A DNA stretch of 45,383 nt. It comes from an uncultured Chloroflexia bacterium (GTDB lineage: Bacteria; Chloroflexota; Limnocylindria; Limnocylindrales; CSP1-4). The stretch lies in NCBI GenBank assembly GCA_963766735.1, contig CAVYBU010000020.1:1-45383 (forward strand), given 5' to 3'. Positions 7,825 to 45,383 of the stretch are shown in pieces. The notes under the pieces were generated by a model. It was not told where the DNA came from, made no database searches, and worked only from the letters and a program-made list of their open reading frames with translations. The position numbers were made by a program, and so were the translations under genes. The number at the start of each line of letters is the position of its first letter. Positions within the stretch are counted from its first letter, which is position 1.

Positions 7825-7901
7825 CGGCGTCGGTGAGCGGGCGCCGCCTGATTTCTGTCCGAACGACACTGGGATTCGGCCGCACCACATCGCATCCTCG
7901 G

Positions 7902-9045: not shown

Positions 9046-9076
9046 CTGCGCGGAGCAGGTCGCCGGCCGATCCACC

Positions 9077-9098
9077 TGGCGCGTCGCGGAGGCGTTGG
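9077..9098 (+). repeat. Weak, eroded copy of the tRNA-3'-like site
   Basis: TGGCGCGTCGCGGAGGCGTTGG versus consensus TGGCGCGCCCGGAGGGCGTCGG; intergenic, same orientation. Confidence 0.35.
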
Positions 9099-9219
9099 AT
9101 CTGGCCCCCGATCACGGAGCCCGGGCAGCGCCGCGCCTGGGCATCATCGACAAACTGGGCGAGCCCTCCTGGAGAGCGGACCCAGGCGCACGCTGGCCGG
9201 GCGCGTGGCCCTCGGCCCG

Positions 9220-10272: not shown

Positions 10273-10373
10273 CTGGGTACAGGCCCCGCCATCAGCGGCG
10301 CCGTCCTCGTGATACTGCGTTGCGCCGAGGGCGGCCGCCTAGGGCCGTTCGATCGAAAGGCCCGAATCCGATC

Positions 10374-10408
10374 GAGTGCCCTGAACGGCGTCGAGCGTGC
10401 GCGAACGG
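10374..10408 (+). repeat. Eroded copy of the tRNA-3'-like site
   Basis: GAGTGCCCTG-AACGGCGT-CGAGCGTGC-GCGAAC keeps the spacer length, right arm (7/9) and GAAC tail. Confidence 0.45.
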
Positions 10409-10428
10409 CGTCGGGTTGTTCCGACCGG

Positions 10429-16891: not shown

Positions 16892-16944
16892 GACGCGAGT
16901 ATGCGCCAAGATCCTCCACGCGCCGTCCGGGGCTCTCGGAGCTC

Positions 16945-16980
16945 GTGCGCCCGGAGGGCTCGAGCGGGCCAGAACGACAC
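16945..16980 (+). repeat. Degenerate copy of the tRNA-3'-like site
   Basis: GTGCGCCCG-GAGGGCT-CGAGCGGGC-CAGAACGACAC between divergent genes. Confidence 0.7.
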
Positions 16981-17051
16981 CGCCGCGAGTGCCGCCCCGC
17001 GGAGAGCCCTCGCAGAGGCGGGTTGCTGCCTCGGGTAATCTTCGCCCCATC

Positions 17052-31098: not shown

Positions 31099-31137
31099 TG
31101 GCGCGCCCGGAGGGCGTCGGGCGCGCAGGAACAGCAA
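31099..31137 (+). repeat. tRNA-Arg-3'-like recombination-site repeat
   Basis: TG-GCGCGCCCG-GAGGGCGT-CGGGCGCGC-AGGAACAGCAA; perfect 9-bp arms, 8-bp spacer. Confidence 0.92.
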
Positions 31138-31257
31138 TGATTCGCGGGGCAGCGTTTCAAGAGGTTTGGCGAGCTGCAGCCGGCGCCTCGGCCACCGCGT
31201 ACGGCGGGGCCGCCACCGGAGCACGCGGCCGGGTGAGTGGGGTGGCAGACTAGAGAC

Positions 31258-33015
31258 GTGGCACCGAAGAGCGCCCCGCGATCCGCCCCCAATGCTGATG
31301 CCGGGCTCGGAGGACTGGCGTCTGCGTGGCTGGTCGTGCGGTGGCCGCTGTTCGGCGCAGTCGCTGTGGTCGCTTTCCTCCTTGGCTACGTCGGCTTCGG
31401 CTCCTACTTCGAAGACCTCCTGACTCCACGTCCGCCGACTGATCTGGTGTACCTGTCGCTGCAGCTGTTCGTGCTGGAGTCAGGCAGCATTCCGGGACCC
31501 GTGCCCTGGCAGCTGGGCGTCGCCCGCTTCCTGGCTCCTGCCACCACAGTGACAGGGGTCGCGGTGGCCCTGGCGGCCATCTTCGGCGAGGAACTGGCGG
31601 AGGTGCGGCTGCACCTCCAGAGACGACACATCGTTGTGTGCGGGTTGGGTGAGCGAGGAACACGGCTGGTCCGGTCGTTGCTCGACGGTGGGTATCGGGT
31701 GGTGGCAGTCGAGCTGGATCCCGGCAATCGGGCGATCCCCGAGGTTCGCCGTCGAGGGGCTCTGGTGGTGGTCGGAGACGCCCGCACTGCTGGGGTGCTG
31801 CGCCGCGCCCGCGTCCAGCACGCCGAATACGTGGTTGCGTTGACAGGCGCCGACGACGCCAATGCGGAGGTGGCTATCCGCGCGGGAGAGTTGGCGCCGG
31901 TTCATGGGCCGGCGCTGACCTGCCTGGCACATGTGCGGGACCCGGGGCTGTGTGCCCTCCTGCGCTCGCGGGAACTGGCGTCCGGCCACGCGACTCACTA
32001 CCGCCTTGACTTCTTCAACATCTATGAACAGGGCGCGCGGGCGCTGCTGCGCGACCAGCCGGCAATTGGTCTCGCCGTGCAGGAGCCACGACTGGCGGTG
32101 ATCGGTCTCACCCCGCTGGGTCAGGCGGTCGTCCTCGAGTCGGCCCGGCAGTGGCGAGCCAGCGGCCGGGCGCGCGACCATCGCATCCAGATCACGGTGC
32201 TGGATCCGGACGCGGAGCGACTTGTGGGCCTGTTGCAGGCGCGCTACCCCCAGCTCGACCATGTCGCCGTCGTGCAGGGTGTCGAGACCGGAGCCGGCCA
32301 CCTCGATTGCTCGACACTCAGGTCCGGCGGGCCGTGGCAGGCCGCCTACGTGTGCATCGATGATGATTCAATGGCGCTTGACGGGGCGCTACAGGCTCGT
32401 CAGTGCCTGGAAGGCAGCTCGACCCCGGTGGTCGTCGATCTGAGCATGTCACCCGGGCTGGCGGGACTAGTGCAACGCCCGGCGGGTAGCGACGGTATTC
32501 GCGCGTTCGATCTGTTCGAGCGGACGCTCCGACCTGATCTGCTGTTGGGCGGGACGTACGAGATCCTCGCTCGCGCCATCCACGCCGAGTATGTCGATGA
32601 GGCACGCCGGCAGGGGGCCACCGCCACCAGCAACCCATCGGTTGTTCCCTGGGAACAGTTGCCCGATTCCCTCAAGGAGTCCAACCGGGATCAGGCAGCA
32701 CACATCGGGGTGAAGCTGGCTGCGATCGGACGGGGGATAGCCCCGCTCAACGACTGGGAGGCCGATCAGCTCACGTTCACGGGAGCCGAGGTCGAACAGC
32801 TGGCCGAGCAGGAGCACCGACGGTGGGTCGAACAGCGGCTGCGCGACGGCTGGACACTCGGACCCAAGGACATCGACGCCAAGGTCACTCCCTACCTTGT
32901 CCCGTGGGAGCAGCTCAGCGACGAGGTCCGGGAGTTGGATCGCCGACCGGTCAGGGGCATCCCGGGATTTCTGGCCCGGGCCGGTTACCAGGTTGTGCCC
33001 AACTCGATCCCCTAG
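31258..33015 (+). CDS. 2TM channel-like protein with two RCK/TrkA-N domains and RyR repeats
   Basis: TM-loop-TM, HIVVCGLGERG, VVGDA, AVIGLTPLG, then LARAIHAEY..VPWEQLPDSLKESN and LAEQEHRRW..GWTLG..LVPWEQLSDEVRELD. Confidence 0.85.
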   Translation: MAPKSAPRSAPNADAGLGGLASAWLVVRWPLFGAVAVVAFLLGYVGFGSYFEDLLTPRPPTDLVYLSLQLFVLESGSIPGPVPWQLGVARFLAPATTVTGVAVALAAIFGEELAEVRLHLQRRHIVVCGLGERGTRLVRSLLDGGYRVVAVELDPGNRAIPEVRRRGALVVVGDARTAGVLRRARVQHAEYVVALTGADDANAEVAIRAGELAPVHGPALTCLAHVRDPGLCALLRSRELASGHATHYRLDFFNIYEQGARALLRDQPAIGLAVQEPRLAVIGLTPLGQAVVLESARQWRASGRARDHRIQITVLDPDAERLVGLLQARYPQLDHVAVVQGVETGAGHLDCSTLRSGGPWQAAYVCIDDDSMALDGALQARQCLEGSSTPVVVDLSMSPGLAGLVQRPAGSDGIRAFDLFERTLRPDLLLGGTYEILARAIHAEYVDEARRQGATATSNPSVVPWEQLPDSLKESNRDQAAHIGVKLAAIGRGIAPLNDWEADQLTFTGAEVEQLAEQEHRRWVEQRLRDGWTLGPKDIDAKVTPYLVPWEQLSDEVRELDRRPVRGIPGFLARAGYQVVPNSIP

Positions 33016-33132
33016 GATAGGGAGGCGAGATCCACCGGCGATCCGTCCGGGCCTGCCGAACGTCCCTGTCACCGCAGGCCCGCTGCTCCGCCGGACAGGA
33101 CCGGTCCACCGACCGGTTGGGAGCCGGGCGTC

Positions 33133-34260
33133 ATGGCCCACGACGTCTTCATCTGCCATTCGTCCAAGGACCGCACGGTCGCGAACGCGATCTGTGCCAC
33201 GCTCGAGCAGCAACGCATCCGCTGCTGGATCGCGCCCCGGGACGTCCTCCCCGGCAGCGACTATGCCACGTCCATCGTCGAGGCCGTCAGCGCCACAAGA
33301 CTCACGGTCTTCGTCTTCTCGGAGAACTCCAACCAGTCCCCGCACGTCCGCAGGGAGATCGAGCGCACCGTCAGCCGCGGCATCCCGATCCTCCCGTTCC
33401 GGGTGGAGGACGTCGTGCCCTCCCCGTCGCTCGAGTACTTCATCTCGGACGCCCACTGGCTCGACGCCCTTACCCCGCCGCTTGAGCAGCATCTCCAGCA
33501 GCTCGTCGGCGTCGTCCGGGCTCTGCTCGCGAGCCTGCCGCCGAAGAGCGGGATTGTGCCGGTGGCCGCCGGCGCCCAGGAGCCCTCCCCAGCGGAGCGT
33601 ATGCCGACGACCGCGCCGCCGCAGATCGCTCCGGGCACGCCCTGGACGATGGCCAAGCGACGGCCGCCGGTGCTGATCGCTGGCATCGTCGGGGTGGGTT
33701 TGGTGGCTGTCCTGGGACTCGTCGGGGCCATTGCTCTTGCCCCCTCGGGTCCGGCAGCGACGTCGCCGAGTCCGGAAGCGATGTCGCCGAGTTCTGAAGC
33801 GACGTCGCCGAGTCCGGAAGCGACGTCGCCGAGTCCAGCGGCAAAGATTGTCGCGGAGTCGGCGCTCATGGCCGGCGACTGCCTGAGGACGCCGAACGAG
33901 TACGCGGGCAGCGCATCCGATCAGGCTCGTTTCTGGGCGGAAGGCCCGTGGTCTTCGAGTTGGGTCGTCTTGCCATGCGATCAGGACCACGGCGCCGAGG
34001 TGTTCTTCTATGGCGATGTCTGGGGGTCCCGGACAACCTATCCCGGCGACGCCGCCGTCGGGTCCCGGTGGACAGCGCAGTGCGCGGCAGAGTTCGAGCG
34101 CTATGTCGGAGTCCCGTCGGGGCGGTCGGTCCTGAGCATCAACGGATGGACTGGCTTCGGCGCCGACGGGTGGGCCCAGGGGCTGCGCGACATGGCCTGC
34201 ATCGCCTACGACCGCGGCGGCGCAGCTCTGCAAGGGAGCATCAGGGGAACCGGCCGGTAG
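33133..34260 (+). CDS. TIR-domain protein with TM helix and Cys-containing extracellular (septum-formation-like) domain
   Basis: HDVFICHSSKD, CWIAPRDV.PG, SNQSPHVRREIE; TM at VLIAGIVGVGLV; GDCL..PCDQDHGAEVF..C..C. Confidence 0.9.
   Translation: MAHDVFICHSSKDRTVANAICATLEQQRIRCWIAPRDVLPGSDYATSIVEAVSATRLTVFVFSENSNQSPHVRREIERTVSRGIPILPFRVEDVVPSPSLEYFISDAHWLDALTPPLEQHLQQLVGVVRALLASLPPKSGIVPVAAGAQEPSPAERMPTTAPPQIAPGTPWTMAKRRPPVLIAGIVGVGLVAVLGLVGAIALAPSGPAATSPSPEAMSPSSEATSPSPEATSPSPAAKIVAESALMAGDCLRTPNEYAGSASDQARFWAEGPWSSSWVVLPCDQDHGAEVFFYGDVWGSRTTYPGDAAVGSRWTAQCAAEFERYVGVPSGRSVLSINGWTGFGADGWAQGLRDMACIAYDRGGAALQGSIRGTGR
33757..33837 (+). repeat. 21-bp x ~4 coding tandem repeat (ATSPSPE linker)
   Basis: GCGA(C/T)GTCGCCGAGT(C/T)C(G/T)GAA units. 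Confidence 0.9.
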
Positions 34261-34315
34261 CACAGCGCCCGACGGTGGGTTGATCGGCCGTCGGGATGGT
34301 AGGCCCGGAGGTGTC

Positions 34316-34343
34316 TGGCGCGCGGAGGGCGGACGGCGAACAA
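34316..34343 (+). repeat. Degenerate copy of the tRNA-3'-like site
   Basis: TGGCGCGC--GGAGGGCGGACGGCGAACAA; left arm, GGAGGG and GAACAA tail kept, with internal deletions. Confidence 0.55.
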
Positions 34344-34467
34344 GGGACGGGCATGCGAACGCCGACCGCCAGGCTGAGGTTGAACGACCCGCCCTTGGTG
34401 CGCTTGCCGAGCCCGTGGCGTCCCGCCGTCGACGGTGTGTCGCGGATCCCGGGTGAGGTATGGACCG

Positions 34468-34700
34468 ATGCGCGAGGATGTTGAGCGGCTGATCGAGACC
34501 GCAGAGGAGCGCTGGAAGGCTGGCTGGAAGGCCGGCCCCAGTCGGCTCCGCTGGACGTTGCTGCCACCGCAGCCAGGAGATCCAGCTCCTGATCCGTCGC
34601 TGCCGGATCATGAGGGCCGGGAGGTTCGGCTGTCGTCCCTCTGGGCGGAGCGTCCGCTGCTCATCCTCTTCTGGCGCCACTTCGGCTGCTCGTGCGGTGG
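34468..34700 (+). pseudogene. Truncated AhpC/TSA (peroxiredoxin-like) gene
   Basis: GDPAPDPSLPDHEGREVRLSSLWAERPLLILFWRHFGCSCG, then family-like sequence stops. Confidence 0.75.
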
Positions 34701-35061
34701 GAACGGCCGCCCAGATCCTGTTCGACGCCCCGGACCCGATCCTCCGCTGCGACCTGCAGGCGGGCCTTGACCTGGCCCGATGCCTCTCGCCTGGAACGCT
34801 GCGCCGCGCCACGCGAAATCGGGGGGATTTGGGGCAAGGTGAACGGGGCCGGGAACGGCGCTCGCGGAATGGGCTGACTCGCCTCATTCACCCTCGTTCG
34901 ATTGACTCTACCGATCGCGGCCCGCCGAGAGGCCCGCTGCCGTGCTCTTGGCGGCGATCAGGATCGTGGCCAGCAGCCCAGCCACATCGCCCGCGTGCGC
35001 CATCGCTGACCGGCGGCAAAGAGCTGGGCACGTGCTTCCGTCCTTCGAAATGCAGATGCCG

Positions 35062-35934
35062 CTATTTGACCTTCTGGGTCGAAACGGCAACGGCGTACTT
35101 GTTGATGGCGCTTGCGGGCACATCGCGGCCGTAGATCTTCCACGGCGGAGCGGTGCTGGGCAGACCGACGCTTTGACCACAGGCCGGGACCGTGCCGTAG
35201 ATGGTCTTGGTCTGCAGCACCTTGGTGGTGCGGGCCACCCGCACCCGCACCACAATCGCCTCCTTGTAGCGGGTGACCTTGCCGATCTTGCCGTCGCTGG
35301 CCCGCTTGTAGGTGCCGCAGACGCTGACCTTGACCGATTTCTGCCATTCGACACAGGCCACCAGCTGGATGTCCGAACCCGCCCAGGTCTGGTCGAGCCA
35401 GTGGTCGTTGATGTCATGGGAGGTGAGCTTCCAACCGTCGGTCGAGCCCCACTGTTCGACCACCACCAGGGGATGGCTCTTGCCGCCGTACTTGGCGGCT
35501 TGCGGCAGGGCGGTGCCGTGGCACACCAGTTCGAGATCAAGGTCGCTGATCGGCACCGGGGTCGGCTCGGGGGTCGGGGTGGGCACCGGTGTCGGAGAGG
35601 CCGTCGGAGCCGGGGTCGGAGCCGGTGTCGGAGCGGGCGTTGGTGGGAGCGTCGGGGCCGGGGCCTCGCGGCCGGGCGGCTGAGCCGAAGCGGCCTGGTC
35701 GACCGGCGGGGGAGTGGCGGGGGCCGTACCGCAGGCGGCGAGGAGAGCCGCTATCAGCGCAAGGGAAAGGAGGGAACGAAACCTTCGCGGGGGCTCGTCG
35801 GTCACCAGCAGCGCCTCGACCTCGGCCTCGGTCGCCCGGACCACGCCGGACTCGAAGTAGAAGGACTCCAAGTGGTCACGATCCCCCGGCTCGGTCTCGA
35901 ACCACGAGAGCCGCTGCTCGCCGGCGTCAGTCAT
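35062..35934 (-). CDS. Putative lipoprotein with Pro/Thr-rich linker
   Basis: Lipobox-like ALLAAC, PTPAPTPAPTPA linker, Cys-containing C-terminal domain; true start may be GTG 35805. Confidence 0.75.
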   Translation of the reverse strand: MTDAGEQRLSWFETEPGDRDHLESFYFESGVVRATEAEVEALLVTDEPPRRFRSLLSLALIAALLAACGTAPATPPPVDQAASAQPPGREAPAPTLPPTPAPTPAPTPAPTASPTPVPTPTPEPTPVPISDLDLELVCHGTALPQAAKYGGKSHPLVVVEQWGSTDGWKLTSHDINDHWLDQTWAGSDIQLVACVEWQKSVKVSVCGTYKRASDGKIGKVTRYKEAIVVRVRVARTTKVLQTKTIYGTVPACGQSVGLPSTAPPWKIYGRDVPASAINKYAVAVSTQKVK

Positions 35935-36386
35935 CGGGCAATCCCTCACAGATGTGGACTGGGGGACGCCTCACTACTGTCTTGGCACCACTATGACGAG
36001 CCCGCCTCGCTCGCGGGCGCTCATTCCGTGCCTGACTCACCGCATCGAGTGCTCCGAAACCACCCAATCAGCGCTCCTGACCGTCAGGTCAAATCACCCT
36101 GATCTTGCACGGGGTGGCCACCCCGCTTGACGCGCGCACGTTCCCGCCGAGGCTGTTGCGGACAGCCAGGTCGGCTGGTCGTGCCGCATAGGCGATGCAG
36201 TGGTCGCAATTCAAGAAATCTGATGTCCGACTGAGCAGGCGTGACGCGGCGGAGGAACACACGAAGATATGAGCATCATCGCGATCGACTGGGCCGACTC
36301 GGGCCTCGACTGGGGCACCGAGGACGGCGCCACGCCAACTCATGGTGCCGTTCGTCCTGTGTCACCGATGTCGCGACTCAAGTCAC

Positions 36387-36425
36387 TGGCGCGTCCGGAG
36401 GGCTGTGAGCGCGCACGAACAACAC
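36387..36425 (+). repeat. tRNA-Arg-3'-like recombination-site repeat
   Basis: TGGCGCGTCCG-GAGGGCTG-TGAGCGCGC-ACGAACAACAC; upstream GTCACCGATGTCGCGACTC nearly identical to that of the 45370 copy. Confidence 0.88.
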
Positions 36426-36459
36426 CGCACCCGGGTGCAGCGTCGCGGTCTGGGGCGGG

Positions 36460-36555
36460 TCAGTCGCCCGCGGCCCGCGACCCCTGCATCATGCCGTAGG
36501 CGTTGCCGTCCGGGCCGCGGAAGTGGAACCAGCCGTAGCCGTGGATGCTCCCCGC
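36460..36555 (-). pseudogene. 3' remnant of a VOC/glyoxalase-family gene
   Basis: Manual translation GSIHGYGWFHFRGPDGNAYGMMQGSRAAGD*; no plausible start 5' of the motif, and an in-frame stop lies just beyond the adjacent repeat. Confidence 0.65.
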
Positions 36556-36582
36556 CCCGGAGGGATGCGGGCGCGCAGGAAC
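36552..36582 (+). repeat. Hybrid copy of the site (right half intact, left arm replaced)
   Basis: ccgcCCCG-GAGGGATG-CGGGCGCGC-AGGAAC. Confidence 0.88.
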
Positions 36583-36610
36583 CGAGGATCAGGCCGATCC
36601 CCAGGGCGGG

Positions 36611-37516
36611 TCACTTGGAGCGGTGGTCGGGCAATGCCGCGGCGACGAGCAGGTCACGGATCACGTCGTTGCCCTTCTGCGAGGGGTGCGTGTAGTCGCC
36701 GCCCACAAAGTCGCCGGCGGGGTCCGTTCCATCGGCTCCGTTGAACGCCCGATGAACATCCACGCAGACCGCGTCGATCGCCGCGGCCTCACCGCACAGA
36801 GCGGGGTTCCAGGTTCGGAACCAGTAAGCCTCCGCGTCAAGGAGGGCTGATCGCGTTTCCTCGTCGAACTGATCGAGGAAGCTCCAGCCCCTCCACGTGT
36901 CGTAGGGGGCGAGGACCCCGACAGCGGCGTGCGGGGCTGCTCGGCGGATCCCCGCGAACACCTCGGCGACCTGGCCACGGGTCACCGGGACCACGGAGTC
37001 GATGCATTCCCTGCTGGTCGCGGCGGCTGCCTGGATGGCATCGGTGTCGCTCGCCGACGGACCAAGTGCGGGCGGGCAGGCGTCATGGGGATCGGAGAAC
37101 GGCGGCTGATCGTTGAACGCGATCGAGATCACGACGACGTCCGCAGCCTCGAGTTGGCTCCTGAGGGTCGCGTCAGACTGCATCTGGTCGACGATGTCGA
37201 TGGCCCGCGCCCCATCGTGGCGAGACCGGTTCACCACTGTCACCGGGCCCCCGAGCTCGGTCTCCAGCGCTCGGGCGTACGAGGTCACGAACCCCGTGCA
37301 GCCCGGACAGTCATCGGCCGAGTTGAAGGGAATGGAGTCACCCATCGCGACCAGAGTGAACGCTTCTACGTCCGTCGTTGGTTCGGCGGACGGCGTCGCT
37401 GGGATGGAGGCGAACACCGTGACGTCTGGGGAGGGGCTCGACTGCGGGGCGCCGCCACAGGCGGCCACCAGCGCCGCAATGAGAGCGCCGACAATGACGA
37501 TGGGACGCCGCGTCAT
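36611..37516 (-). CDS. SGNH/GDSL hydrolase lipoprotein
   Basis: Lipobox LVAAC; LVAMGDSI (block I), IAFND (block III), DYTHPSQKG (block V). Confidence 0.9.
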   Translation of the reverse strand: MTRRPIVIVGALIAALVAACGGAPQSSPSPDVTVFASIPATPSAEPTTDVEAFTLVAMGDSIPFNSADDCPGCTGFVTSYARALETELGGPVTVVNRSRHDGARAIDIVDQMQSDATLRSQLEAADVVVISIAFNDQPPFSDPHDACPPALGPSASDTDAIQAAAATSRECIDSVVPVTRGQVAEVFAGIRRAAPHAAVGVLAPYDTWRGWSFLDQFDEETRSALLDAEAYWFRTWNPALCGEAAAIDAVCVDVHRAFNGADGTDPAGDFVGGDYTHPSQKGNDVIRDLLVAAALPDHRSK

Positions 37517-37721
37517 CCTTCGCTCCTCGGGCTCCGATGCTCGGGACCGGAGTGTACGCGGCGCGATCCTGAGCCACGGGACTACGAGGGGTTGGGGGAT
37601 GTCGTCCGTGGTGGCCGGGCCACATTCGTCATCGGAGGTCTGCAAGCCTGGCGACCAGGCCAGGACGGGTGTCTCCTCATGTTTCACAAGCCCCGCGAAC
37701 GAGAGCGTGTGGAGCGAATCG

Positions 37722-37751
37722 ACGAGGCCCCGCCTTCTGGCGGGGCCTCGT
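37722..37751. terminator. Intrinsic terminator-like hairpin
   Basis: 13-bp perfect stem ACGAGGCCCCGCC-ttct-GGCGGGGCCTCGT 18 bp past the stop of the anti-sigma-like gene. Confidence 0.7.
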
Positions 37752-37769
37752 GCGTTTGGATGGGCTGGT

Positions 37770-38405
37770 TCAGTTGGCGAACGCCGCCTCCCAGGATGCC
37801 GCCGTCCCGGTGTCGAAGTCGAGCGTGTAGCCGCAGGCGTTGATGCTCGTCCCGGCCGCCGTCACGAGGTAGCGCCCGCCGACCTCGAAGTCAGGGACCG
37901 ATCCGATGAGCGCCACACCCTCCGACGGGCTCGTGAGCGTGACGGCGCCATCCACGCCCTTCCAGCCGGTGTTGACGGCGAACGTGATCACACCGCCGTC
38001 GACGGCGGTGACGGTGCCGTCGAAGACGACGTCGAAGGTCGGCAGGATCGCCGGGTCGTACATCAGGCACGAGGCCATCCCGACGCCGGAACCGGTGTCG
38101 ATGGACGGCGCCGGGGCGTCGGGGGACTGCGTCGGGACGCTGGCGATCGCGTCCGGCTGCTGCCGCCCGAGGCCGGGGCCGACGACGACCACGAGGGCGA
38201 CGACGCCGACGAGGGCGAGCCCGCCGAGCAGGGCGAGCGGGCGGCGCGAGTGCTTGTCCGCGGGGGTGGGCTGGACGTCGGTCATGATGTGCTCCTGGAT
38301 CCTCGCCGAGACGCGGGCGAGGCTCGCGTCGGGCACGTCGTGCGCGCGGACCGGGTCGGCATCACGGAGCCGGTCGAACGGATCGGTCCCGTTCGGCATG
38401 CTCAT
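37770..38405 (-). CDS. Single-TM putative anti-sigma factor
   Basis: DPFDRLRDADPV N-terminus, one TM, ATGA overlap with the upstream ECF sigma stop. Confidence 0.7.
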   Translation of the reverse strand: MSMPNGTDPFDRLRDADPVRAHDVPDASLARVSARIQEHIMTDVQPTPADKHSRRPLALLGGLALVGVVALVVVVGPGLGRQQPDAIASVPTQSPDAPAPSIDTGSGVGMASCLMYDPAILPTFDVVFDGTVTAVDGGVITFAVNTGWKGVDGAVTLTSPSEGVALIGSVPDFEVGGRYLVTAAGTSINACGYTLDFDTGTAASWEAAFAN

Positions 38406-38998
38406 TCCGCCACTCCCTTCCATGCGACACCGGTGGTGCCCTTCACATCAGCCAATGTCCGGCTGTGACCGGGATCTTTCACGTCGCGATCCCCTGGTGC
38501 AATTCGTTCGAGCGCCGCCGCGAAGCGGGCCCGGGCCCGATGCAGGCGGATCGCCACTGCGTTGGGCGTGATGTGGAGGACCTCGGCGATCTGGTGATTG
38601 CGCAGCTCCTCCCACGCGACGAGACGCAGGATCTCCTGGTCAGCAGGCGGCAGGGAGGCGAGCGCCTCGAACGCGGGGCCATCGAGATCCTCGCCCGCGC
38701 GAAGCGGGGTTGGGGCGTCCTCGACGCGGAGGAACGCCGCCAGCCGCTGCCGCCGACCATGGCCGCGACGCTGGTTGGCGAGGACCCGCCTTGCGACGGC
38801 ATACAGCCACGGCAGTGGTTCGGCGGGGACCGCGGAGAGCCTGCGCCAGGCGACGGCGAAGGTCTCGGAGGCCGCGTCCTCGGCATCCGCGAGGGTCTCG
38901 GTGCGCCGCATCGCGTAGGCGAGGACGTCACGCTGGTGAGCCGCGACGATCGCCTCGAACCGGGCGAGCGGCTGGATGGGGATCGGGGTTTTGGTCAC
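38402..38998 (-). CDS. ECF RNA polymerase sigma-70 factor
   Basis: DAEDAASETFAVAWRR, PWLYAVARRVLANQRR, DQEILRLVAWEEL..IAEVL.ITPNAVAIRLHRARAR; start approximate. Confidence 0.92.
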   Translation of the reverse strand: MTKTPIPIQPLARFEAIVAAHQRDVLAYAMRRTETLADAEDAASETFAVAWRRLSAVPAEPLPWLYAVARRVLANQRRGHGRRQRLAAFLRVEDAPTPLRAGEDLDGPAFEALASLPPADQEILRLVAWEELRNHQIAEVLHITPNAVAIRLHRARARFAAALERIAPGDRDVKDPGHSRTLADVKGTTGVAWKGVAE

Positions 38999-39172
38999 CA
39001 CCGCGAGACGCCGAGCCGGCAGCGCCGGTTCCGCCGGGACGAGGCTGGCGCGATCGGTCGTGTGGTCGGGTCCGCCGGAGGCCGGAACCCCATGCTGCGT
39101 CGCCGGTTCGCTGGGATCGTCTCCGCGTATCGCCGGATCTGAGTCGGGTCGGGTCCTGGCAGAAGGAGTGCC

Positions 39173-39460
39173 GTGGCAATCAAGGTCATCGTCGAGCTGA
39201 AGGCCAAACCGGGGCGGCGCGACGAGCTGCGGTCGCTCATCGAGCAGCTCGCCACACGCGAGCGACCGAGCGGCTACCACGGGAGCACGTACTACGAGTC
39301 GGTGGACGACCCAGACTTGCTCATCGACATTGCGGACTGGGAGTCGCCTGAGGCACGGGCGGCCCATCTCGCGAAGGCCATGGCCGTCGGTGCCTATGGT
39401 CCGGTGCTCGAGCCGCTGGCGGGGCCCTTCCGGGCCACCGTCATCCGCCGGCTGCCCTGA
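39173..39460 (+). CDS. Antibiotic biosynthesis monooxygenase (ABM) domain protein
   Basis: VIVELKAKPGRRDEL, DDPD, WESPEARAAH; AAGGAG RBS. Confidence 0.85.
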   Translation: MAIKVIVELKAKPGRRDELRSLIEQLATRERPSGYHGSTYYESVDDPDLLIDIADWESPEARAAHLAKAMAVGAYGPVLEPLAGPFRATVIRRLP

Positions 39461-39483
39461 GCCCTGCGTCCACGCGGCGACAT

Positions 39484-39524
39484 TGGCGCGCCCGGAGGGA
39501 TTCGGGCGCGCAGGAACAACAACG
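39484..39524 (+). repeat. tRNA-Arg-3'-like recombination-site repeat (best consensus copy)
   Basis: TG-GCGCGCCCG-GAGGGATT-CGGGCGCGC-AGGAACAACAACG; 39484-39504 reverse-complements to CGAATCCCTCCGGGCGCGCCA. Confidence 0.95.
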
Positions 39525-39924
39525 TGCTTGATCTGGGCCAGGCCGTCCGGGACCGATCGCTCGGCGCGACGGCAGGGTTCCGGGCGGCGTCCGGGGCGAC
39601 CTGGGCGGGGTCCCGAGAGGCGCGGCGAAGACGCCCGAAGCCTTCCGTCATGGAGTGGGTCATCGGCTGCCTCATCTATCGGGGCCCGCCGCCGCCGCTC
39701 GTGTCCTGCCGTGGTGTTATCGAACTGACGGACATCGTGTACACATCAGGACCTGCGGTGTCGGCCCGGGACCCCTGGCACCCCATCGGTGGCTGCGTCC
39801 GCCGGGCGCAACCGTTCGCGACCAATACCCCTGGTTCACGCGATCTGAGCAGCCCACCATCCTCGAAGGAGAACGCGGTCCGGCGGCCGCGCGGACGACT
39901 GTGCCGGCCCGGAGGCGGTTCGTC

Positions 39925-40182
39925 ATGGTTGGGCAGTACCTCGACTTCCAGGCGGTTGTCGGGATCACCAAGCACATGGGCGGCCGGGGGGCCACGAGGG
40001 ATCTCCTCGAGCTCTGCCACGTGGACGAGGCGCGCGATGTCCTCGAGGTCGGGTGCGGGATCGGCGTGGGGCCGGTCGAGCTCGCGCTCAGCCGCGACTG
40101 TCGGGTGGTGGGCGTCGACCGTTCCGCGCAGATGATCGAGTGGGCGCGACGGCGCGCCCGCGAGCACGGTTGCGCCGATAGG
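39925..40182 (+). pseudogene. 5' half of a class I SAM-dependent methyltransferase
   Basis: KHMGGRGATRDLL, VLEVGCGIG, VVGVDRSAQMIEWARRRA; similarity ends at ~40182, 50 bp before the next gene. Confidence 0.8.
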
Positions 40183-40234
40183 CCTGTTGCTGCAAACTCC
40201 GCCGAACGATCGGCGCAGCGATCGGGGAGGGTGA

Positions 40235-43200
40235 ATGACCAACGCAGACGCGCCGGAGCCCGGCTCCGCCGACGGGCCTACGGAGCCTCCCGGCGTATTG
40301 CCGCCGGGCGCCCGGGCGGAGGCGGAGCTCCGGACGTTCCTGATCGCCGACATCCGCGGCTACACGACGTACACGCAGGAGAACGGCGCCGACGCGGCCG
40401 CCGAGCTCGCCGGCCGGTTCGCAGCAATCGTCCGCGAGGTCGTCACTGCCCATGACGGGTTCCTCCTCGAGTTGCGTGGCGACGAAGCGCTCGTCGTCTT
40501 CGTCCTCGCCCGTCACGCTCTCCGGGCCGCGCTCGAGCTCCAGTCCCGGTTCGCTGCCGAGCTCGCTCGCGGCGTCGGCATCGGGCTCGACGCCGGCGAG
40601 GCCATCCCGGTCGAGGGCGGCTACCGCGGCAGCGCACTGAACCTCGCCGCCCGCCTCTGCGGCCAGGCGGGACCGGGTGAGACGCTCGCCTCCGAGGCGG
40701 TCATCCACCTCGCGGCCAAGGTCGAGGGGGTCGGCTACGCGGACCCGCGGACGTACCGCCTCAAGGGCATCGAGCAGCCGATCCGGGCGATGCACATCGT
40801 GGTCCCAGAGCTGGGCTCCAAGAAGCCGATCCGCTACGGCGGTGATGGACGGCGCGCGGACCGCCGCCTGCTCGCCGCGGGCGGGGTCGGCCTGGCCGCG
40901 CTCGCCCTCGTCACCGTCGTCGTGTCGGGAGCGTTGGGCGGATCTGGCGGCGCCGCGCCGAGTCCGAGTGGCGCCGCCGCGTCAGGATCTCCCTCGCCAG
41001 TCGCCTCTCCCGAGCTCGTTGCGTACGAAGACCTCCCGGCGATCGCGTACCTGGACCCGGCGACCGGTCAAGCGACGAGCGTCAAGCAGGTGGACGAGCG
41101 GATCGAGAGTGTTGCGTTCGATGACGGCGCCTTCTGGCTGTCCTCGCCACCGTTCACCAACATCGTGGCGCTCGACCCCGCCACGCACGAGCGGATCCGC
41201 ACTGTCTCCCACCCGGTGGCAACGCCGCAGGACATCAGGGTGGCCGACGGCATCATGTGGGTGGACGACTTCGATCGGCCGCGGGTGGTCGGCGTGGACG
41301 TTGCCACGTCGAGGGTGGTGCACGACTACGACCTGCCGAGCGAGGACGGCGGCGGCACCGCCGGTCTTGCCTTCGCCGACGGTTCGCTCTGGGTGGGCAC
41401 CAGGCACTCCGAGGAGCTCTTTCGCCTGGACCCCGCGACCGGTGACGTGGAGGCCACGATCCCCGTGGCGTCTCCTGTCCTGGCCTCCGACGGCGACCTG
41501 CTCATCGCCCAGAGTTCTGGGAAGTTGCACCGGATCGACACGGCCCGGAACGTCGTCCTGTGGAGCACCGCCGAGATCACCGCCCCTGACATCTGGACGG
41601 CCGTTGCGTTCGGCGGCGGCTACATCTGGGTCAGTGACGACACGCGGGGGACCGTCACGAAGGTCGAGCCGACGACCGGAAAGGTCGTCAGGGTCTTCGA
41701 CGTCGGGGTCGGCGCCCTGCCGATGGCGGCCGCGGGGAACACGCTGTGGGTCGCCGTGCAGGACGCGGGAAGGCTGGTCGCCATCGACATGACGACGGGC
41801 GAGACGCGGGACGTCGACATCGGTCACTTCATCGGTGGCCTGGCGGCGTCGGACAGCGAGCTTCTCGTCAGCCTGGATCGCACGGGAGACGACGTGATCG
41901 CGCACCTCTCGGGCGACGTCCTCACGATCACCGCGCCTACCTTCCCGTTCCACGATCCTGACCCCGCGAGGAACGGCTCGTTCCAGGGTCGCCAGGCAGC
42001 CTACGCGACCTGTGCGGGCCTTCTGCGCTATGCGGACATGCCCGCGCCCGAAGGTTGGGCCCTCGTGCCCGAGGTGGCGGTCGCGCTGCCCGACGTCTCG
42101 GCCGACGGGACGACATACACCTTCGCCGTTCGGCCGGGCTGGAAGTTCTCGGACGGCCAGGCGCTGACGGCGGAGACCTACCGATCCTCGATCGAACGGG
42201 CACTGTCACCCGAGCTGGACAGCTGGTTCGGGCGCCGCTACGCGCCACCGTTGGTCGGCCTGCAGGCGTACCTCGACGGAACTGCGACGCACGTCGAGGG
42301 CATCGCGGTGGACGGAGAGCGGATCACCTTCACACTCGCCGAGCCAGCCGGCGACTTCCTCGACCTGCTGACGCTCCCCTGGTTCTGTCCGGTGCCCACA
42401 GGGACACCGGCTGTCCCCAACCTCGACCCTACGCCACCCTTCCCGTCAGCCGGTCCGTACTACCTGGCCGAGCACCTGTCCGCTGAGCTGGCGGTCTTCA
42501 AGCGCAACCCGAACTACGCGGGTGACCGGCCGCAACCGTTCGACGCGATCGTCTTCCGCGAGGGGATCGAGCCCGGCACGGCCGTCTCGCTCGTCGATGC
42601 GGGCGCGTACGACGCCGTTGCCGACGAAACCGGGGAGCTGAGCGTCCAAAGCGCGCTGGCCCGGACCTGGGGACCCGGCAGCGACAATGCAGTGGCGGGT
42701 GACCAGCGCTGGTTCGGAGGCGCACGACCCGCCACCGGCTTCCTCGCGCTCAACCCGGCTGACCCCTTGCTGAAGGACCCTCAGGTCCGTCGCGCGATCA
42801 GCCTGGCCCTCGACCGATCGGCGCTGGCCGCTCCTTCGAACGAGACGCCATCCGACCGGCTTCTCAGCCCGGCGGTGCGCGGATCTGACCTCTCCGATCC
42901 TCCAGTCCCGGCGCCCGACCTGGAGGCCGCCCGAGCACTGATGGCCGGCCGGACCGGGACCCTCGTGCTCGCCACCGGCCCGGAGGGTGAATGCGCGACC
43001 TGCGACGCCCGGGCCAATGCTGTGGTCGGCCAGCTGGCCGCCATCGGCCTGACCGTCGAGATCAAACGTCACCCGTGGGCGGAGCTCGGAGCAGCCATCA
43101 CGGCTCCCGACTCGACGGTGGACCTGTGGCTTGAGCCCGTCTGGGCGGACTATCCGGACCCGGTCGCCATGCTACGCGGGCTGCACGATCTGGCCGCCCT

Positions 43201-43426
43201 CCCGGAGGGCGACCTGGCCGAGCTCGATCGCCTCGAGGCCCTGGCGGGCCAGGAGCGCGTCGACGCCGCCGTGGCCCTCGCGACAAAGGTCACCGAGACC
43301 GACCACCTCGTCCTGCCGTTCGGCTACCGCGTCTACCCCATGTACCTCGGCGCCGACGTCGGCTGTGCCTTCGTGCAGCCGGCGATTGGGGCGGTCGACC
43401 TGCTGAGCTTGTGCCGGAAGCCCTGA
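40235..43426 (+). CDS. Class III nucleotide cyclase + TM + beta-propeller + family 5 solute-binding domain fusion
   Basis: FLIADIRGYT, RGDEALVVF, ALNLAARL; TM; DGSLWV/GGYIWV repeats; VSADGTTYTF, SAGPYY, KRNPNY, VRRAISLALDR. Confidence 0.9.
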   Translation: MTNADAPEPGSADGPTEPPGVLPPGARAEAELRTFLIADIRGYTTYTQENGADAAAELAGRFAAIVREVVTAHDGFLLELRGDEALVVFVLARHALRAALELQSRFAAELARGVGIGLDAGEAIPVEGGYRGSALNLAARLCGQAGPGETLASEAVIHLAAKVEGVGYADPRTYRLKGIEQPIRAMHIVVPELGSKKPIRYGGDGRRADRRLLAAGGVGLAALALVTVVVSGALGGSGGAAPSPSGAAASGSPSPVASPELVAYEDLPAIAYLDPATGQATSVKQVDERIESVAFDDGAFWLSSPPFTNIVALDPATHERIRTVSHPVATPQDIRVADGIMWVDDFDRPRVVGVDVATSRVVHDYDLPSEDGGGTAGLAFADGSLWVGTRHSEELFRLDPATGDVEATIPVASPVLASDGDLLIAQSSGKLHRIDTARNVVLWSTAEITAPDIWTAVAFGGGYIWVSDDTRGTVTKVEPTTGKVVRVFDVGVGALPMAAAGNTLWVAVQDAGRLVAIDMTTGETRDVDIGHFIGGLAASDSELLVSLDRTGDDVIAHLSGDVLTITAPTFPFHDPDPARNGSFQGRQAAYATCAGLLRYADMPAPEGWALVPEVAVALPDVSADGTTYTFAVRPGWKFSDGQALTAETYRSSIERALSPELDSWFGRRYAPPLVGLQAYLDGTATHVEGIAVDGERITFTLAEPAGDFLDLLTLPWFCPVPTGTPAVPNLDPTPPFPSAGPYYLAEHLSAELAVFKRNPNYAGDRPQPFDAIVFREGIEPGTAVSLVDAGAYDAVADETGELSVQSALARTWGPGSDNAVAGDQRWFGGARPATGFLALNPADPLLKDPQVRRAISLALDRSALAAPSNETPSDRLLSPAVRGSDLSDPPVPAPDLEAARALMAGRTGTLVLATGPEGECATCDARANAVVGQLAAIGLTVEIKRHPWAELGAAITAPDSTVDLWLEPVWADYPDPVAMLRGLHDLAALPEGDLAELDRLEALAGQERVDAAVALATKVTETDHLVLPFGYRVYPMYLGADVGCAFVQPAIGAVDLLSLCRKP

Positions 43427-43472
43427 TCGTGACGTGGCGCGCGATCGCGCGATCAGTGGTCGGGCCTGGACC

Positions 43473-43510
43473 TGGCGCGCCCGGAGGGATCCGAACACGC
43501 AGGAACAACA
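43473..43510 (+). repeat. tRNA-Arg-3'-like recombination-site repeat
   Basis: TGGCGCGCCCGGAGGGATCCGAACACGCAGGAACAACA; first 24 nt match the reverse complement of GTTCGAATCCCTCCGGGCGCGCCA with one mismatch. Confidence 0.93.
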
Positions 43511-43653
43511 CGCGTCGCACCGCGGTATCACACGGACGATGCATGACGCGCAGGAGGGACCGGTGGGCCGCGCGGCGTACCCATTGGGTTGGCGCTCACT
43601 GGCTGGGTCGACGTATGTGGTCGTCCAGTCGATGGGCCCCTTCGCGTCCGCCG

Positions 43654-44166
43654 TCAGGCCGCGTAGCCGCCCCGCAGCGCGGCCAGGATGTCCTGCCATT
43701 CCCGGTCCTGGGGATCGCCGGCGCCCCGGGCGAGGATGGTGCCGTCGCGGGTCACGACCAGTGCGTGGACCTCGTCACCACCCGGGATCGCAAGGGACCG
43801 CTGGAACCTGCCCACGTCGGTGTAGATCGTGATCGTCCGGGCGAGGACGTCCGGGTCGCCGATGCCCGACGTCATGCCGCCATCGATGAATCGCCGGACC
43901 GGCCGCCACGCGGTGGCGAGGACGGGCAGCTCCACCACGGCAACGGGCAGCGCGCCGGTGTGGCCCCGAGGCGTCGGGGGCACGCCATCCGCCACGGCAC
44001 GAGCGATCCAGCGGTCCACCCGGGCCTGGTGCCATTGTCGGAACGCCACGACGGCCAGCGTCCGTTCGGCGGGGAACTCGCGCGGGAGCGCAAGCTCCAC
44101 GCCCAGGAGCGAGCGACCGGTGACGGCAGGGAAGCGGGCGGCGGTCCCGCCGGCGTCGGCGGTCAT
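43654..44166 (-). CDS. Conserved hypothetical protein, possibly ATP10-like/thioredoxin-like
   Basis: FPAVTGRSLLG..LP.EF, VVAFRQWHQARVDRW, ELPVL, RRFIDGGM.SGI, RTITIYTD. Confidence 0.65.
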   Translation of the reverse strand: MTADAGGTAARFPAVTGRSLLGVELALPREFPAERTLAVVAFRQWHQARVDRWIARAVADGVPPTPRGHTGALPVAVVELPVLATAWRPVRRFIDGGMTSGIGDPDVLARTITIYTDVGRFQRSLAIPGGDEVHALVVTRDGTILARGAGDPQDREWQDILAALRGGYAA

Positions 44167-44191
44167 CGCGGGGCAGCCCGTCTGCCGTGCA

Positions 44192-45085
44192 TCAGGAACC
44201 CGTCCCGGGATCGGGCAGGGGATCGACCCCGGTGAGCCCAGCGGCGAGCTCCCAGAAGCGGCGGGCCCTGCCCGCATCGTGAGACTCCGGGCTGGAGTCG
44301 ATGGGCCGCCGCTCTCCAAAGAACTGGCCCCCGACGCCCACGATGGACGGATCGACGGCCATGAAGGCGAGCGAGTCCGCGGCGGCATCCACCGACGTAG
44401 CGAACGGCATGCGGGGAAGGACGACCTGCATGAACCGCCGCTTGACGCCGTGGGCGCTGGCGGAGGCGGTCGCCGGCACGAAGCCCGGACACACGGCATT
44501 CGAGGTGATCGAGCGGGGCGGCAGGCGGCGCTGGAGCTCGTAGGCCAGCCACACCACCGCGAGCTTGGAGTTCTTGTAGGCGCGGTCGGGCTGGTAGCCG
44601 CGCTCCAGCTGCGGATCGTCGAAGTCGAAGTCCACCGGGACGCCGCGCGAGTCCGGCAGGTGGAGCCGGGAGCTGACGAAGACGACGCGGGAGGAAGGCG
44701 ACCGCTCGAGCAACGGCAGCATCAGGCCCGTCGTCAGGTAGGGCGCCAGGTCGTTGACGGCCAGCGTCTCCTCGAAGCCGTCCACCGTGACCCTGCGGGT
44801 CGGGCTCTGCTGCATGATGCCGGCGACGTGGAACAGGACGTCGATGGGCGCATCGAGCTCCAGCTGGGCGTCTGCGAACGCCCGCACGGCGGCCAGTGAG
44901 GAGAGGTCCACGGCCCGCGGTTCCACGAGAGCGCCGGGATGCCGCTGCCGGATCTCCGTCGCCGCGGTCTCCGCAGCAGACGGGGTCCGGGCCGTCAGCA
45001 GGACGCGGTGGCCGGCCGCGGCGAGCTTCTCCGCGGTGGCTCTCCCGAGGCCTCGCCCGCCCCCGGTGATCAGGATGGTCGTCAT
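44192..45085 (-). CDS. SDR oxidoreductase (retinol dehydrogenase-like subgroup)
   Basis: ITGGGRGLG, DLSSLAAVR, DGFEETLAVN, YKNSK (YxxxK), NAVCPGFV. Confidence 0.93.
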   Translation of the reverse strand: MTTILITGGGRGLGRATAEKLAAAGHRVLLTARTPSAAETAATEIRQRHPGALVEPRAVDLSSLAAVRAFADAQLELDAPIDVLFHVAGIMQQSPTRRVTVDGFEETLAVNDLAPYLTTGLMLPLLERSPSSRVVFVSSRLHLPDSRGVPVDFDFDDPQLERGYQPDRAYKNSKLAVVWLAYELQRRLPPRSITSNAVCPGFVPATASASAHGVKRRFMQVVLPRMPFATSVDAAADSLAFMAVDPSIVGVGGQFFGERRPIDSSPESHDAGRARRFWELAAGLTGVDPLPDPGTGS

Positions 45086-45369
45086 CGCACGACCATCGTA
45101 GTCGCGTGTCGCGGACGCGGGGCCTCAGCCTGCATCGGCGCTCGAGGGACGTCGGTCAGTGGGAGCGTCACGAACATTCGAGTCCCGGTCGCGCGGCACC
45201 AAACCTTCGGGGTCGTCTCTTGGGTGGTGACCGCATGGGCACCGAACCGCGCGTCGCCCATGTCGCCGACTGACGCAACCGATGGCACCTTTCGCAGCGT
45301 CGCAACGGCTGGCGCGATCGCCAACCCATGGCGCCGCTGGTCAGTCACCTATGTCGCGACTCGGGACAA

Positions 45370-45383
45370 TGGCGCGCCCGGAG
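45370..45383 (-). tRNA. Possible 3' terminus of tRNA-Arg, or another repeat copy, cut by the window edge
   Basis: Reverse complement CTCCGGGCGCGCCA = part of T-stem, acceptor strand CGGGCGC, discriminator G, CCA; only 14 nt visible. Confidence 0.4.

Follow-up and report, generated by a model that had tools for sequence, protein, structure and literature searches.

The 41-nt element at positions 39484–39524 is probably an attL-type junction of integrative elements that insert at the 3′ end of tRNA-Arg(TCG) by means of a large serine recombinase. The window (the whole 45,383-nt stretch of DNA analysed) is the entire contig C20 of a 3.62-Mb assembly, 70.6% G+C, and contains five co-oriented copies of a site of ~41 nt. 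Each copy is laid out as 16 nt of the tRNA-Arg(TCG) 3′ end, 7 variable nt, CGCGC and a AGGAACAAC-type tail. The plus-strand start of every copy is TGGCGCGCCCGGAGGG, that is, the complement of CCA, of the discriminator base and of the acceptor and T-stem 3′ strands. Identity to the tRNA covers 16–21 nt at the 3′ end, and 26 nt in one copy (c4).

Copies were scored with R1, a covariance model built from 29 aligned copies from nine genomes, and those in the window were recovered with E values from 1e-6 to 1e-15. The element under study (c3, 39484–39524, plus strand) scores 64.4 bits; its 16-nt core, the complement of the tRNA-Arg(TCG) 3′ end, is followed by ATT, CGGGCGCGC and AGGAACAACAAC. A sequence-only reading of this DNA had described a 9-8-9 geometry, GCGCGCCCG-GAGGGATT-CGGGCGCGC at 39486–39511, with identical perfect arms around GAGGGCGT at 31101–31126. 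Both are present as described, the latter within copy c1 (31099–31139, plus strand, 59.8 bits), which begins 52 nt 3′ of the stop of a VanW-domain gene. The other copies, all on the plus strand, are less regular. Copy c2 (36387–36427, 54.4 bits) carries one core mismatch and its right arm (TGAGCGCGC) is degenerate, and c4 (43473–43513, 53 bits) has a tRNA-like arm (ATCCGAACACGC) and the tail AGGAACAACAC; their spacers end in CTG and ATC, respectively. In the partial copy c2b (36549–36589, start at ~36549, 34.8 bits) the spacer ends in ATG, the first 8 nt of the core are unrecognisable and CCGGAGGG-ATG-CGGGCGCGC-AGGAAC is intact. The 176-nt span from c2 to c2b recurs in a relative (G001) at 89.8% identity. 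A weak and doubtful site-like match (16939–16985, plus strand, 23.6 bits, E 0.0014) lies within the start of an adenylate-cyclase/AAA/TPR gene. When the whole 3.6-Mb genome (G000) was searched, full copies were confined to this one locus, which is not the pattern of many genome-dispersed copies that marks REP or MITE elements. A loose 9-N8-9 pattern with up to 3 mismatches has 5 matches where 2.3 are expected, a count attained in 8 of 100 shuffles, and is by itself weak evidence; the 16-mer of arm plus tail has 7 matches against 1.9 expected, a number reached by none of 100 shuffles.

Across the 29 copies the core is nearly invariant and the most variable part is the 7 nt after it, i.e. the last 3 nt of the spacer and the first 4 nt of the right arm. 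GAGGG, earlier described as invariant, belongs to this core. Variation is not limited to the last 3 spacer nt, as had been thought, and extends over all 7. The fixed spacing that the sequence-only reading had asked for was found, CGCGC lying at a constant distance from the tRNA-derived core in 28 of the 29 copies that were aligned and in 69 of the 88 core copies. Of these 69 in-register copies (25 genomes), 35 have the tail AGGAACAAC or ACGAACAAC, and the arms form 9 pairs in 20 copies, 8 in 21, 7 in 16 and 6 in 12. Covariation of the arms, the companion prediction, did not appear: compensatory changes occur at 0 of 9 pairs in the 29 copies, with pairing of 86.9% against 87.3% in column shuffles. 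The left arm is unable to vary because it is tRNA sequence. As single-stranded DNA the c3 hairpin is stable (z −2.6 on the plus strand and −4.5 on the minus strand) and both c1 and c3 are able to form a 9-bp GC stem; single strands of c2 and c4, two of the four full-length window copies, fold no better than shuffles. An Rfam search with the site gave no match. Taken together, sequence blocks at fixed spacing with neither compensatory change nor consistent folding argue that the conserved feature is not a maintained stem.

No tRNA was predicted by ARAGORN in the window. The last 1929 nt of the window are contig C27:1–1929 with 4 mismatches, and on C27 this sequence leads directly into a complete minus-strand gene for tRNA-Arg(TCG), which encodes its CCA. 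Therefore, the window stops 14 nt inside that gene, whose 3′ end (the last 14 nt, CCA included) occupies 45370–45383 on the minus strand; it is cut by the contig end and the remainder is on C27. The left arm plus GAGGG is complementary to the CCA and discriminator of the tRNA and to the 3′ strands of its acceptor stem and T-stem, and beyond this shared part the tRNA reads CGAACCCCC at the place where the copies read CGGGCGCGC. The comparison with C27 agrees with the earlier assignment of the left arm to acceptor/T-stem sequence and of the right arm, beyond its first CG, to non-tRNA sequence. A repeat made of the 3′ part of a tRNA, by which insertion restores the gene, with the intact tRNA at the end of the array, is the arrangement of att repeats in tRNA islands. 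An IS481-family element that targets the core adds its own core copies and footprints at these loci; in the window, a remnant of its right inverted repeat abuts c2 (36362–36386, plus strand) and a right-end remnant abuts the tRNA 3′ end (45345–45369, plus strand).

Arrays in the relatives lie on the 3′ side of tRNA-Arg(TCG) with unchanged site orientation and with different blocks between the copies, and synteny is kept in the DNA that flanks the tRNA on its other side. Matches to R1 were found in 58 of 70 genomes of the genus (E ≤ 0.01). In a class-wide sample (E ≤ 1e-5) they were found in 14 of 44 genomes of family f1 besides G000, from 7 genera; outside family f1, one family had matches in 2 of its 50 sampled genomes and two further families in 0 of 55. 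Arrays beside tRNA-Arg(TCG) were read directly in two other genera. The exact 18-nt word spanning arm and tail had no match in viral contigs. In metagenome contigs 80 stretches containing it were listed, 42 of them without a full site, and the four arm-tail matches that were inspected proved to be chance occurrences in unrelated sequence.

The window holds four blocks between its sites, all of them integrase-less, with genes on both strands. Block E1 (31140–36361) encodes a TrkA_N-RyR protein, a TIR-domain protein and further ORFs but no recombinase, and a block in G073 matches its first 3.2 kb at 91% identity. Block E2 (36428–39483), also without a recombinase, carries a GDSL lipase, an ORF and an ECF sigma factor on the minus strand and an ABM monooxygenase on the plus strand. 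Block E3 (39525–43472) contains an ORF starting from the GTG at 39524 and a 1063-aa SBP_bac_5 protein, and block E4 (43514–45344) a short-chain dehydrogenase on the minus strand. Together with both flanking sites, E4 is 99.8% identical over 1913 nt to G081:C1:2–1898, against 75.9% identity between G000 and G081 in the core flank on the other side of the tRNA; in G081 three further blocks separate E4 from the tRNA. Similarly, a 1480-nt amidohydrolase block is 97.5–99% identical in G065, G066 and G085, with flanks at 73–76%, and its right neighbour may be another block, an IS or the tRNA; the same block ends are carried by G080. A GNAT block is present twice in G062 (98.7% identity). The blocks thus move as units between species, and the earlier view of the element as a recombination site and not a chance palindrome is borne out, since it bounds gene blocks that differ between species. 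One metagenome contig joins position 43472 to 39484 (69 nt on the shorter side, 18 nt shared, depth 4.8), as expected for a circle or tandem copy of E3. A tandem 42-nt site is present on one other metagenome contig, and seven more agree with the window up to 39524 and then diverge. All three signals are thin evidence, coming from single low-depth contigs of mixed communities. Unbiased clustering of the 378 ORFs of array stretches revealed no common array gene family. An integron with attC sites and a cassette array was also considered and rejected, there being no tyrosine integrase at the array and the blocks holding 1–5 genes on both strands, whereas integrons have IntI, attI and a promoter beside an array of cassettes that are mostly single promoterless ORFs of one orientation.

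Flank comparison locates the exchange. In 18 of 18 site pairs with a common right flank the left flanks are different, and in 8 of these 18 the 7 variable nt are identical; the 10 discordant pairs comprise one amidohydrolase-block lineage (G066) and one pair formed by a G084 site and a G070 site. Where block-specific left flanks are common to several genomes, the variable bases differ whenever the right neighbour differs. The 7 variable bases go with the right-hand block; in no case do they follow the left flank where right flanks are different. Therefore, the junction lies inside the 16-nt tRNA-identical core, and the variable bases that differ despite an equal right flank (G066; G084 against G070) indicate that some exchange or conversion took place to the right of it. 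The crossover region is thus the 16-nt core, with a few further events to the right, in keeping with the earlier placement of strand exchange in the invariant half. The centre of the 9-8-9 dyad is the GG of the invariant GAGGG, which is likely to be the 2-bp crossover, a position inferred from this symmetry.

As the enzyme, the sequence-only reading had favoured a tyrosine recombinase. None was found in or beside the arrays of 16 genomes examined by coordinates, and a home-made tyrosine recombinase HMM had 0 matches in 29 array stretches and 0 in 80 metagenome stretches (392 kb). A small 308-aa integrase at the 5′ end of a tRNA-Arg in G198 was considered and set aside: its family sits at the 5′ ends of tRNA-Gly, tRNA-Pro and tRNA-Asn and repeats tRNA 5′ halves, and is therefore another system. 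Passages of a paper on Dehalococcoides (PMC3146451) led us to search for a serine recombinase that overlaps its own site, and the pattern held. An intact 508-aa ORF of G070, whose Resolvase domain scores 44 bits (cut-off 23.3), points in the same direction as the sites and ends in ..NGLALALPQVV-MARPEG-FEPPTLGSEDRCSDPLSYGRAAPG, thereby passing through the core and the tRNA in antisense; the gene for an AAA_25 protein is next after it. A homologue with 72% identity (G041:C72) crosses a tRNA-Arg(CCG)-type core into ..GFGRSGTHSGFRFVPIEGAEDWEAGCLRSA-stop, and four more full-length homologues (G003, G061, G014, G006) terminate inside tRNA-Arg(CCG). An intact recombinase at tRNA-Arg(TCG) was thus verified once, in G070, the four other full-length ones checked being at tRNA-Arg(CCG). 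Large serine recombinases carry a C-terminal recombinase domain and a zinc-ribbon domain. In Pfam the G070 protein matches Resolvase alone at E ≤ 0.001, and a PDB sequence search with it gave no match. We call it a large serine recombinase because of its size, its Resolvase domain and the Recombinase-domain match of a relative with 34–36% identity (G081:C6). A general rule that the ORF always enters the core from the left was tried and failed. The ORF-into-core pattern gained its meaning after the serine recombinase had been found. Another serine recombinase, 7.5 kb from the G006 array and with only an arm-like sequence upstream, is a different protein without similarity.

Remains of the same gene are widespread. 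Resolvase-domain genes occur in 44 of the 70 genus genomes, and homologues or fragments of the G070 recombinase in 67. C-terminal fragments that stop near residue 485, where the core ends, adjoin sites in G082, G041, G010, G065, G080, G085, G066 and G045. Moreover, many left flanks of sites (of the ..GCCTCAGGTTGTCA and GGTTGTCA types) are the last codons of the recombinase gene and mirror the tail. A second type of right arm was found at 12 sites, with ..IPIEGRDEWLAAARRLA-stop, the counterpart of the G041:C72 ending, to the right of 7 and ..IEGVEEL.. to the right of 5; in the aligned copies its peptide varies mainly at third codon positions. In the same frame the common right arm reads G-x-G-R-A-G-T-T. 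The host of the window differs from G070 and the eight genomes with fragments in having no serine recombinase gene in the element. A Resolvase-domain search of G000 gave no match, its single recombinase fragment (73 aa) is at tRNA-Arg(CCG) on C19 with no intact copy in the genome, and no recombinase fragment is recognisable to the left of window copies c1, c3 and c4. Attachment sites of serine integrases measure ~40–50 bp and have imperfect two-fold symmetry around a non-palindromic central dinucleotide. The sites described here show such symmetry, the 9-8-9 core being framed by the mirror-image outer motifs GGTTGTC (left) and GAACAAC (right). On these grounds the enzyme is most likely a large serine recombinase and not a Cre-like one, as predicted from gene and site sequence, and we infer that a recombinase of the G070 type acts on these sites.

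A loxP/FRT-like core, worked in trans by a simple tyrosine recombinase (either dedicated or XerC/XerD) with exchange beginning in the invariant half of the spacer, is an improbable alternative. Sites of the loxP/FRT type have inverted arms around an asymmetric 8-bp spacer of fixed length, and the 9-bp inverted arms and fixed asymmetric 8-bp spacer seen here fit that geometry, as does a crossover to the left of the variable bases. Moreover, XerC- and XerD-like proteins are the only tyrosine recombinases in the array-bearing genomes G062 and G152, and one family of small integrases in the lineage lacks an arm-binding domain. However, that family belongs to the different system at tRNA 5′ ends, and no linked enzyme was detected in the 16 genomes, the 29 array stretches or the metagenome contigs (392 kb). 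Variability within the site is highest at the inner 4 bp of the right arm and the symmetry extends over ~50 bp, unlike in loxP or FRT, and it is a serine recombinase gene that physically enters the core. A somewhat better case, though still an unlikely one, can be made for dead scars whose blocks are shuffled by RecA-dependent homologous recombination on the 16–45-nt repeats and the tRNA gene after DNA uptake. This would suit the lack of an enzyme for the sites in G000, the many degenerate copies (12 of 69 with only 6 of 9 arm pairs) and the two block families that exchange to the right of the variable bases, as if any conserved stretch would serve. However, RecA would have to act on a very short identity, the 16 nt where almost every informative junction falls. 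Scars would also hardly keep arm and tail in different genera with constant spacing to the core, nor account for site-bounded blocks that are 98–99.8% identical between species with ~75% identical cores, or for a circle-like or tandem joint exactly at two sites.

The repeated tRNA ends might instead be target-site duplications of the IS481-family element. A 1.35-kb IS (rve, LZ_Tnp_IS481) does sit in the core beside the tRNA in G009, G082, G085 and G066 between 15-nt duplicates of the core, remnants of its right end adjoin c2 and the tRNA in the window, and tandem partial cores resemble IS footprints. Such insertions explain 15-nt core copies at the ends of an IS but not an arm and tail at the left end of each block; the blocks themselves have no IS ends on the left, and the best match to the transposase in G000 is only 30% identical, so that a close copy is lacking. 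We therefore regard this explanation as very improbable. Least credible of all is that the hairpins are transcription terminators or RNA-stability elements derived by chance from a tRNA end, even though three of the five window copies lie 25–55 nt 3′ of the stop of a plus-strand gene and the 9-bp GC stem is possible in c1 and c3. The tail is A-rich and the T run of an intrinsic terminator is absent, c2 and c4 fold no better than shuffles, the 29 copies have no compensatory change, and the site has no Rfam match. Furthermore, the copies are restricted to one locus per genome and the blocks that they bound carry genes on both strands.

Under insertion by a large serine recombinase, the 16 tRNA-identical nt would be where the partners match and exchange occurs, and the 7 variable nt, CGCGC and the AGGAACAAC tail would derive from the attP of the element itself. 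The recombinase gene would span this attP when the element is circular, and its last codons before the core (..LALPQVV) would contain GGTTGTC, mirroring the tail. The core would be translated as ARPEG and the arm next to it as G-x-G-R-A-G-T-T or, in the second type of site, as ..IPIEGRDEWLAAARRLA-stop. Core, arm and mirrored codons would together make an attP of ~50 bp with two-fold symmetry, like the sites of serine integrases. The A-rich tail, which had been proposed as a binding site for an accessory factor, looks less likely to serve that purpose and is more likely the outer part of an integrase half-site and of the reading frame; its mirror image on the left is in the ..PQVV codons. New insertions at the tRNA would displace older elements outward. 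The window blocks would be elements that have lost their integrase module, or blocks that may have been mobilised in cis when an integrase-bearing neighbour excised from a more distant site, in the manner of CIMEs and some ssrA islands of Dehalococcoides. The window blocks are therefore read as leftover or hitch-hiking (CIME-like) modules of serine-integrase elements. As G000 has no intact recombinase, its array would change only when an incoming element brings one.

Recombination at a site within the recombinase gene would also swap the C-terminus of the protein. When the G070 element is integrated by the tRNA, the last ~25 residues are tRNA antisense (..FEPPTLGSEDRCSDPLSYGRAAPG). In the excised form, or in one recombined from site to site, we propose from the reading frames a conserved tail ..(I/V)PIEG(R/A)(D/E)(E/D)W... 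The intact G041:C72 gene encodes this tail, as does the DNA next to at least 12 sites, with mostly third-position variation. It is conceivable, though we put it forward tentatively and think it less probable than not, that the swap acts as a built-in switch between the in and out states, biasing integration versus excision without a directionality factor.

The island is of a known kind, seen here in a little-studied lineage of Chloroflexota. The closest parallel is the ssrA islands of Dehalococcoides, which, in the passages of McMurdie et al. (2011, PMC3146451) that concern them, are in tandem downstream of a tRNA-like gene, have the serine recombinase DsiB and are bounded by a ~20-bp repeat of the gene's 3′ end plus a conserved non-gene motif of ~15 bp, with insertion near the T-loop. 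The same passages state that the 3′ end of the CcrB-like recombinase gene always overlaps att and continues into the neighbour or the RNA gene, and that some islands have no integration module, for which cis-mobilisation was suggested. Tandem blocks at an RNA gene, a 3′-end repeat with a non-gene motif, insertion near the T-loop, a recombinase across the site and integrase-less blocks are thus common to the arrays and the islands as described there. The arrays differ in their target, tRNA-Arg(TCG) with a sister set at tRNA-Arg(CCG), and in their host, a Limnocylindrales-like member of the Chloroflexota; in the arrays of 25 genomes the blocks are mostly 1–6 kb and nearly all integrase-less. The recombinase differs in matching the Resolvase domain alone in Pfam, and is likened to DsiB and CcrB by description only.

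Integrase-less blocks stacked at a target gene also recall CIMEs, which, according to the portion of PMC5704250 that treats them, have lost their integration genes, retain attL and attR, are stacked by the target gene and can move with an integrase-bearing neighbour. The cases described in that portion involve tyrosine integrases in ICEs and IMEs of Firmicutes, whereas the enzyme here is a predicted serine recombinase and cis-mobilisation is our supposition. The Prochlorococcus islands are a looser parallel than either CIMEs or the Dehalococcoides islands. In the relevant sections of the preprint on them (bioRxiv 10.1101/2020.12.28.424599), tycheposons carry cargo at a few tRNA genes, older elements are pushed inward by successive insertions, the islands contain scattered partial tRNAs and degenerate elements, and a large serine recombinase is present in some tycheposons. 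Most tycheposons in those sections have a tyrosine recombinase and a replication module, whereas integrase-less blocks dominate here. The T-loop sublocation class of Williams (2002), as summarised in part of bioRxiv 10.1101/2020.11.02.365908, uses the T-stem as the source of symmetry for a tyrosine integrase. As in that summary, identity extends from the CCA end as far as the T-loop, and the 7 variable nt are exactly at the T-loop position; unlike in it, the T-stem 5′ strand is here replaced by CGCGC and the symmetry is on the acceptor strand. Modules dependent on Xer and dif (IMEX, pdif modules) (PMC6449649) have sites that resemble the host dif. Unlike loxP and FRT systems, the arrays have a serine recombinase gene running into the site, and a cognate tyrosine recombinase was not found in the genomes and contigs searched. 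The GC-rich 9-8-9 geometry seen here can be compared with that of dif, which is 11-6-11.

For annotation, the 41-nt elements and orphan recombinase tails would be att junctions and not hairpin RNAs or pseudo-tRNAs. Serine recombinases are used as genome-engineering tools, and the two tRNA-Arg ends with the element arms offer natural site pairs for a family of them. The system is also a clear case in which to ask if the activity of a recombinase depends on the state of its element when the reading frame includes the site. Lastly, the proposed mechanism would explain why one locus, retained throughout a family of uncultured Chloroflexota, is hypervariable; there, small adaptive blocks with hydrolases, acetyltransferases, a dehydrogenase, sigma-factor modules and a TIR protein pass between species almost unchanged.

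Two contig ends in the assembly fall at the sites. The final 1929 nt of the window (43455-45383) overlap the start of a second contig of the same assembly (C27:1-1929) with 4 mismatches; C27 begins 18 nt ahead of site copy c4, and the window itself ends inside the core at the tRNA. Several contigs of a relative, G081, likewise start or stop at sites. The overlap of the two contigs and their ends at sites suggest that the sample contained two strains differing in block content. Near-empty junctions also exist: in the window, c2 and the partial copy c2b (36387-36589) enclose only ~160 nt, a mini-unit that recurs in the relative G001 at 89.8% identity (L029:3573-3746), and in G081 two full sites are separated by 60 nt.

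In at least four species, the tRNA-Arg core is also the exact insertion point of a 1.35-kb IS481-family insertion sequence (rve, LZ_Tnp_IS481), accompanied by a 15-nt duplication. Copies were located in G009 (L026:6308-7640) and G082 (L035:14159-15579), with end remnants only in the genome studied here, G000 (window 36362-36386 and 45345-45369). Right ends of this element that stand alone, and partial cores in tandem, between some of which lie 2-8 nt of its end, look like footprints of the insertion sequence.

G000 also has an ordinary 6.5-kb island at tRNA-Pro(GGG) (contig C2:350185-356780), whose own tyrosine integrase adjoins the tRNA 3′ end and which has a direct repeat of at least 43 nt; it contrasts usefully with the array at tRNA-Arg, which lacks an integrase. 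A further family of tyrosine integrases (~310-350 aa, members 44-80% identical to one another) is encoded 50-130 nt off the 5′ end of tRNA-Gly, tRNA-Pro, tRNA-Asn or tRNA-Arg, with transcription directed away from the tRNA (L054 (G019:C7) 7369-12020; L052, L053, L055, L056; L138:5889-6815 in G198). At the tRNA-Pro of G019, the tRNA 5′ half (43-73 nt) occurs as three direct repeats spaced ~1.1-1.3 kb.

Within block E1 (window 31237-34260), a TrkA_N-RyR-domain protein adjoins a TIR_2-domain protein whose C-terminus is septum-formation-like, a pair that may be a defence module. Elsewhere in the window, a simple CGA/GAC-type repeat (38180-38212, within the unassigned ORF 37770-38423) showed very high metagenome depth (2268, run X1), and loose ends there carry this repeat too. 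The repeat probably encodes an acidic stretch of low complexity that many organisms have in common.

A 531-aa serine recombinase (Resolvase, Recombinase and Zn_ribbon_recom domains), whose sequence shows no relationship to the G070 family, is encoded in G006 (L022:11310-13147), 7.5 kb from an array in which the tRNA gene is missing. Approximately 190 nt upstream of it, the sequence CTTCGGGCGCGC..ACGAAACAACAAC resembles the arm and tail of the sites but lacks the tRNA core. Lastly, a sister set of sites has the tRNA-Arg(CCG) 3′ end as its core (..CCCGACAGG; L042 (G065:C4) 944, 3776, 9841 and 13931; L265:1874-1889). The arm is unchanged in these sites; a single recombinase family, that of the 508-aa serine recombinase of G070, would thus serve two arginine tRNA genes as targets.
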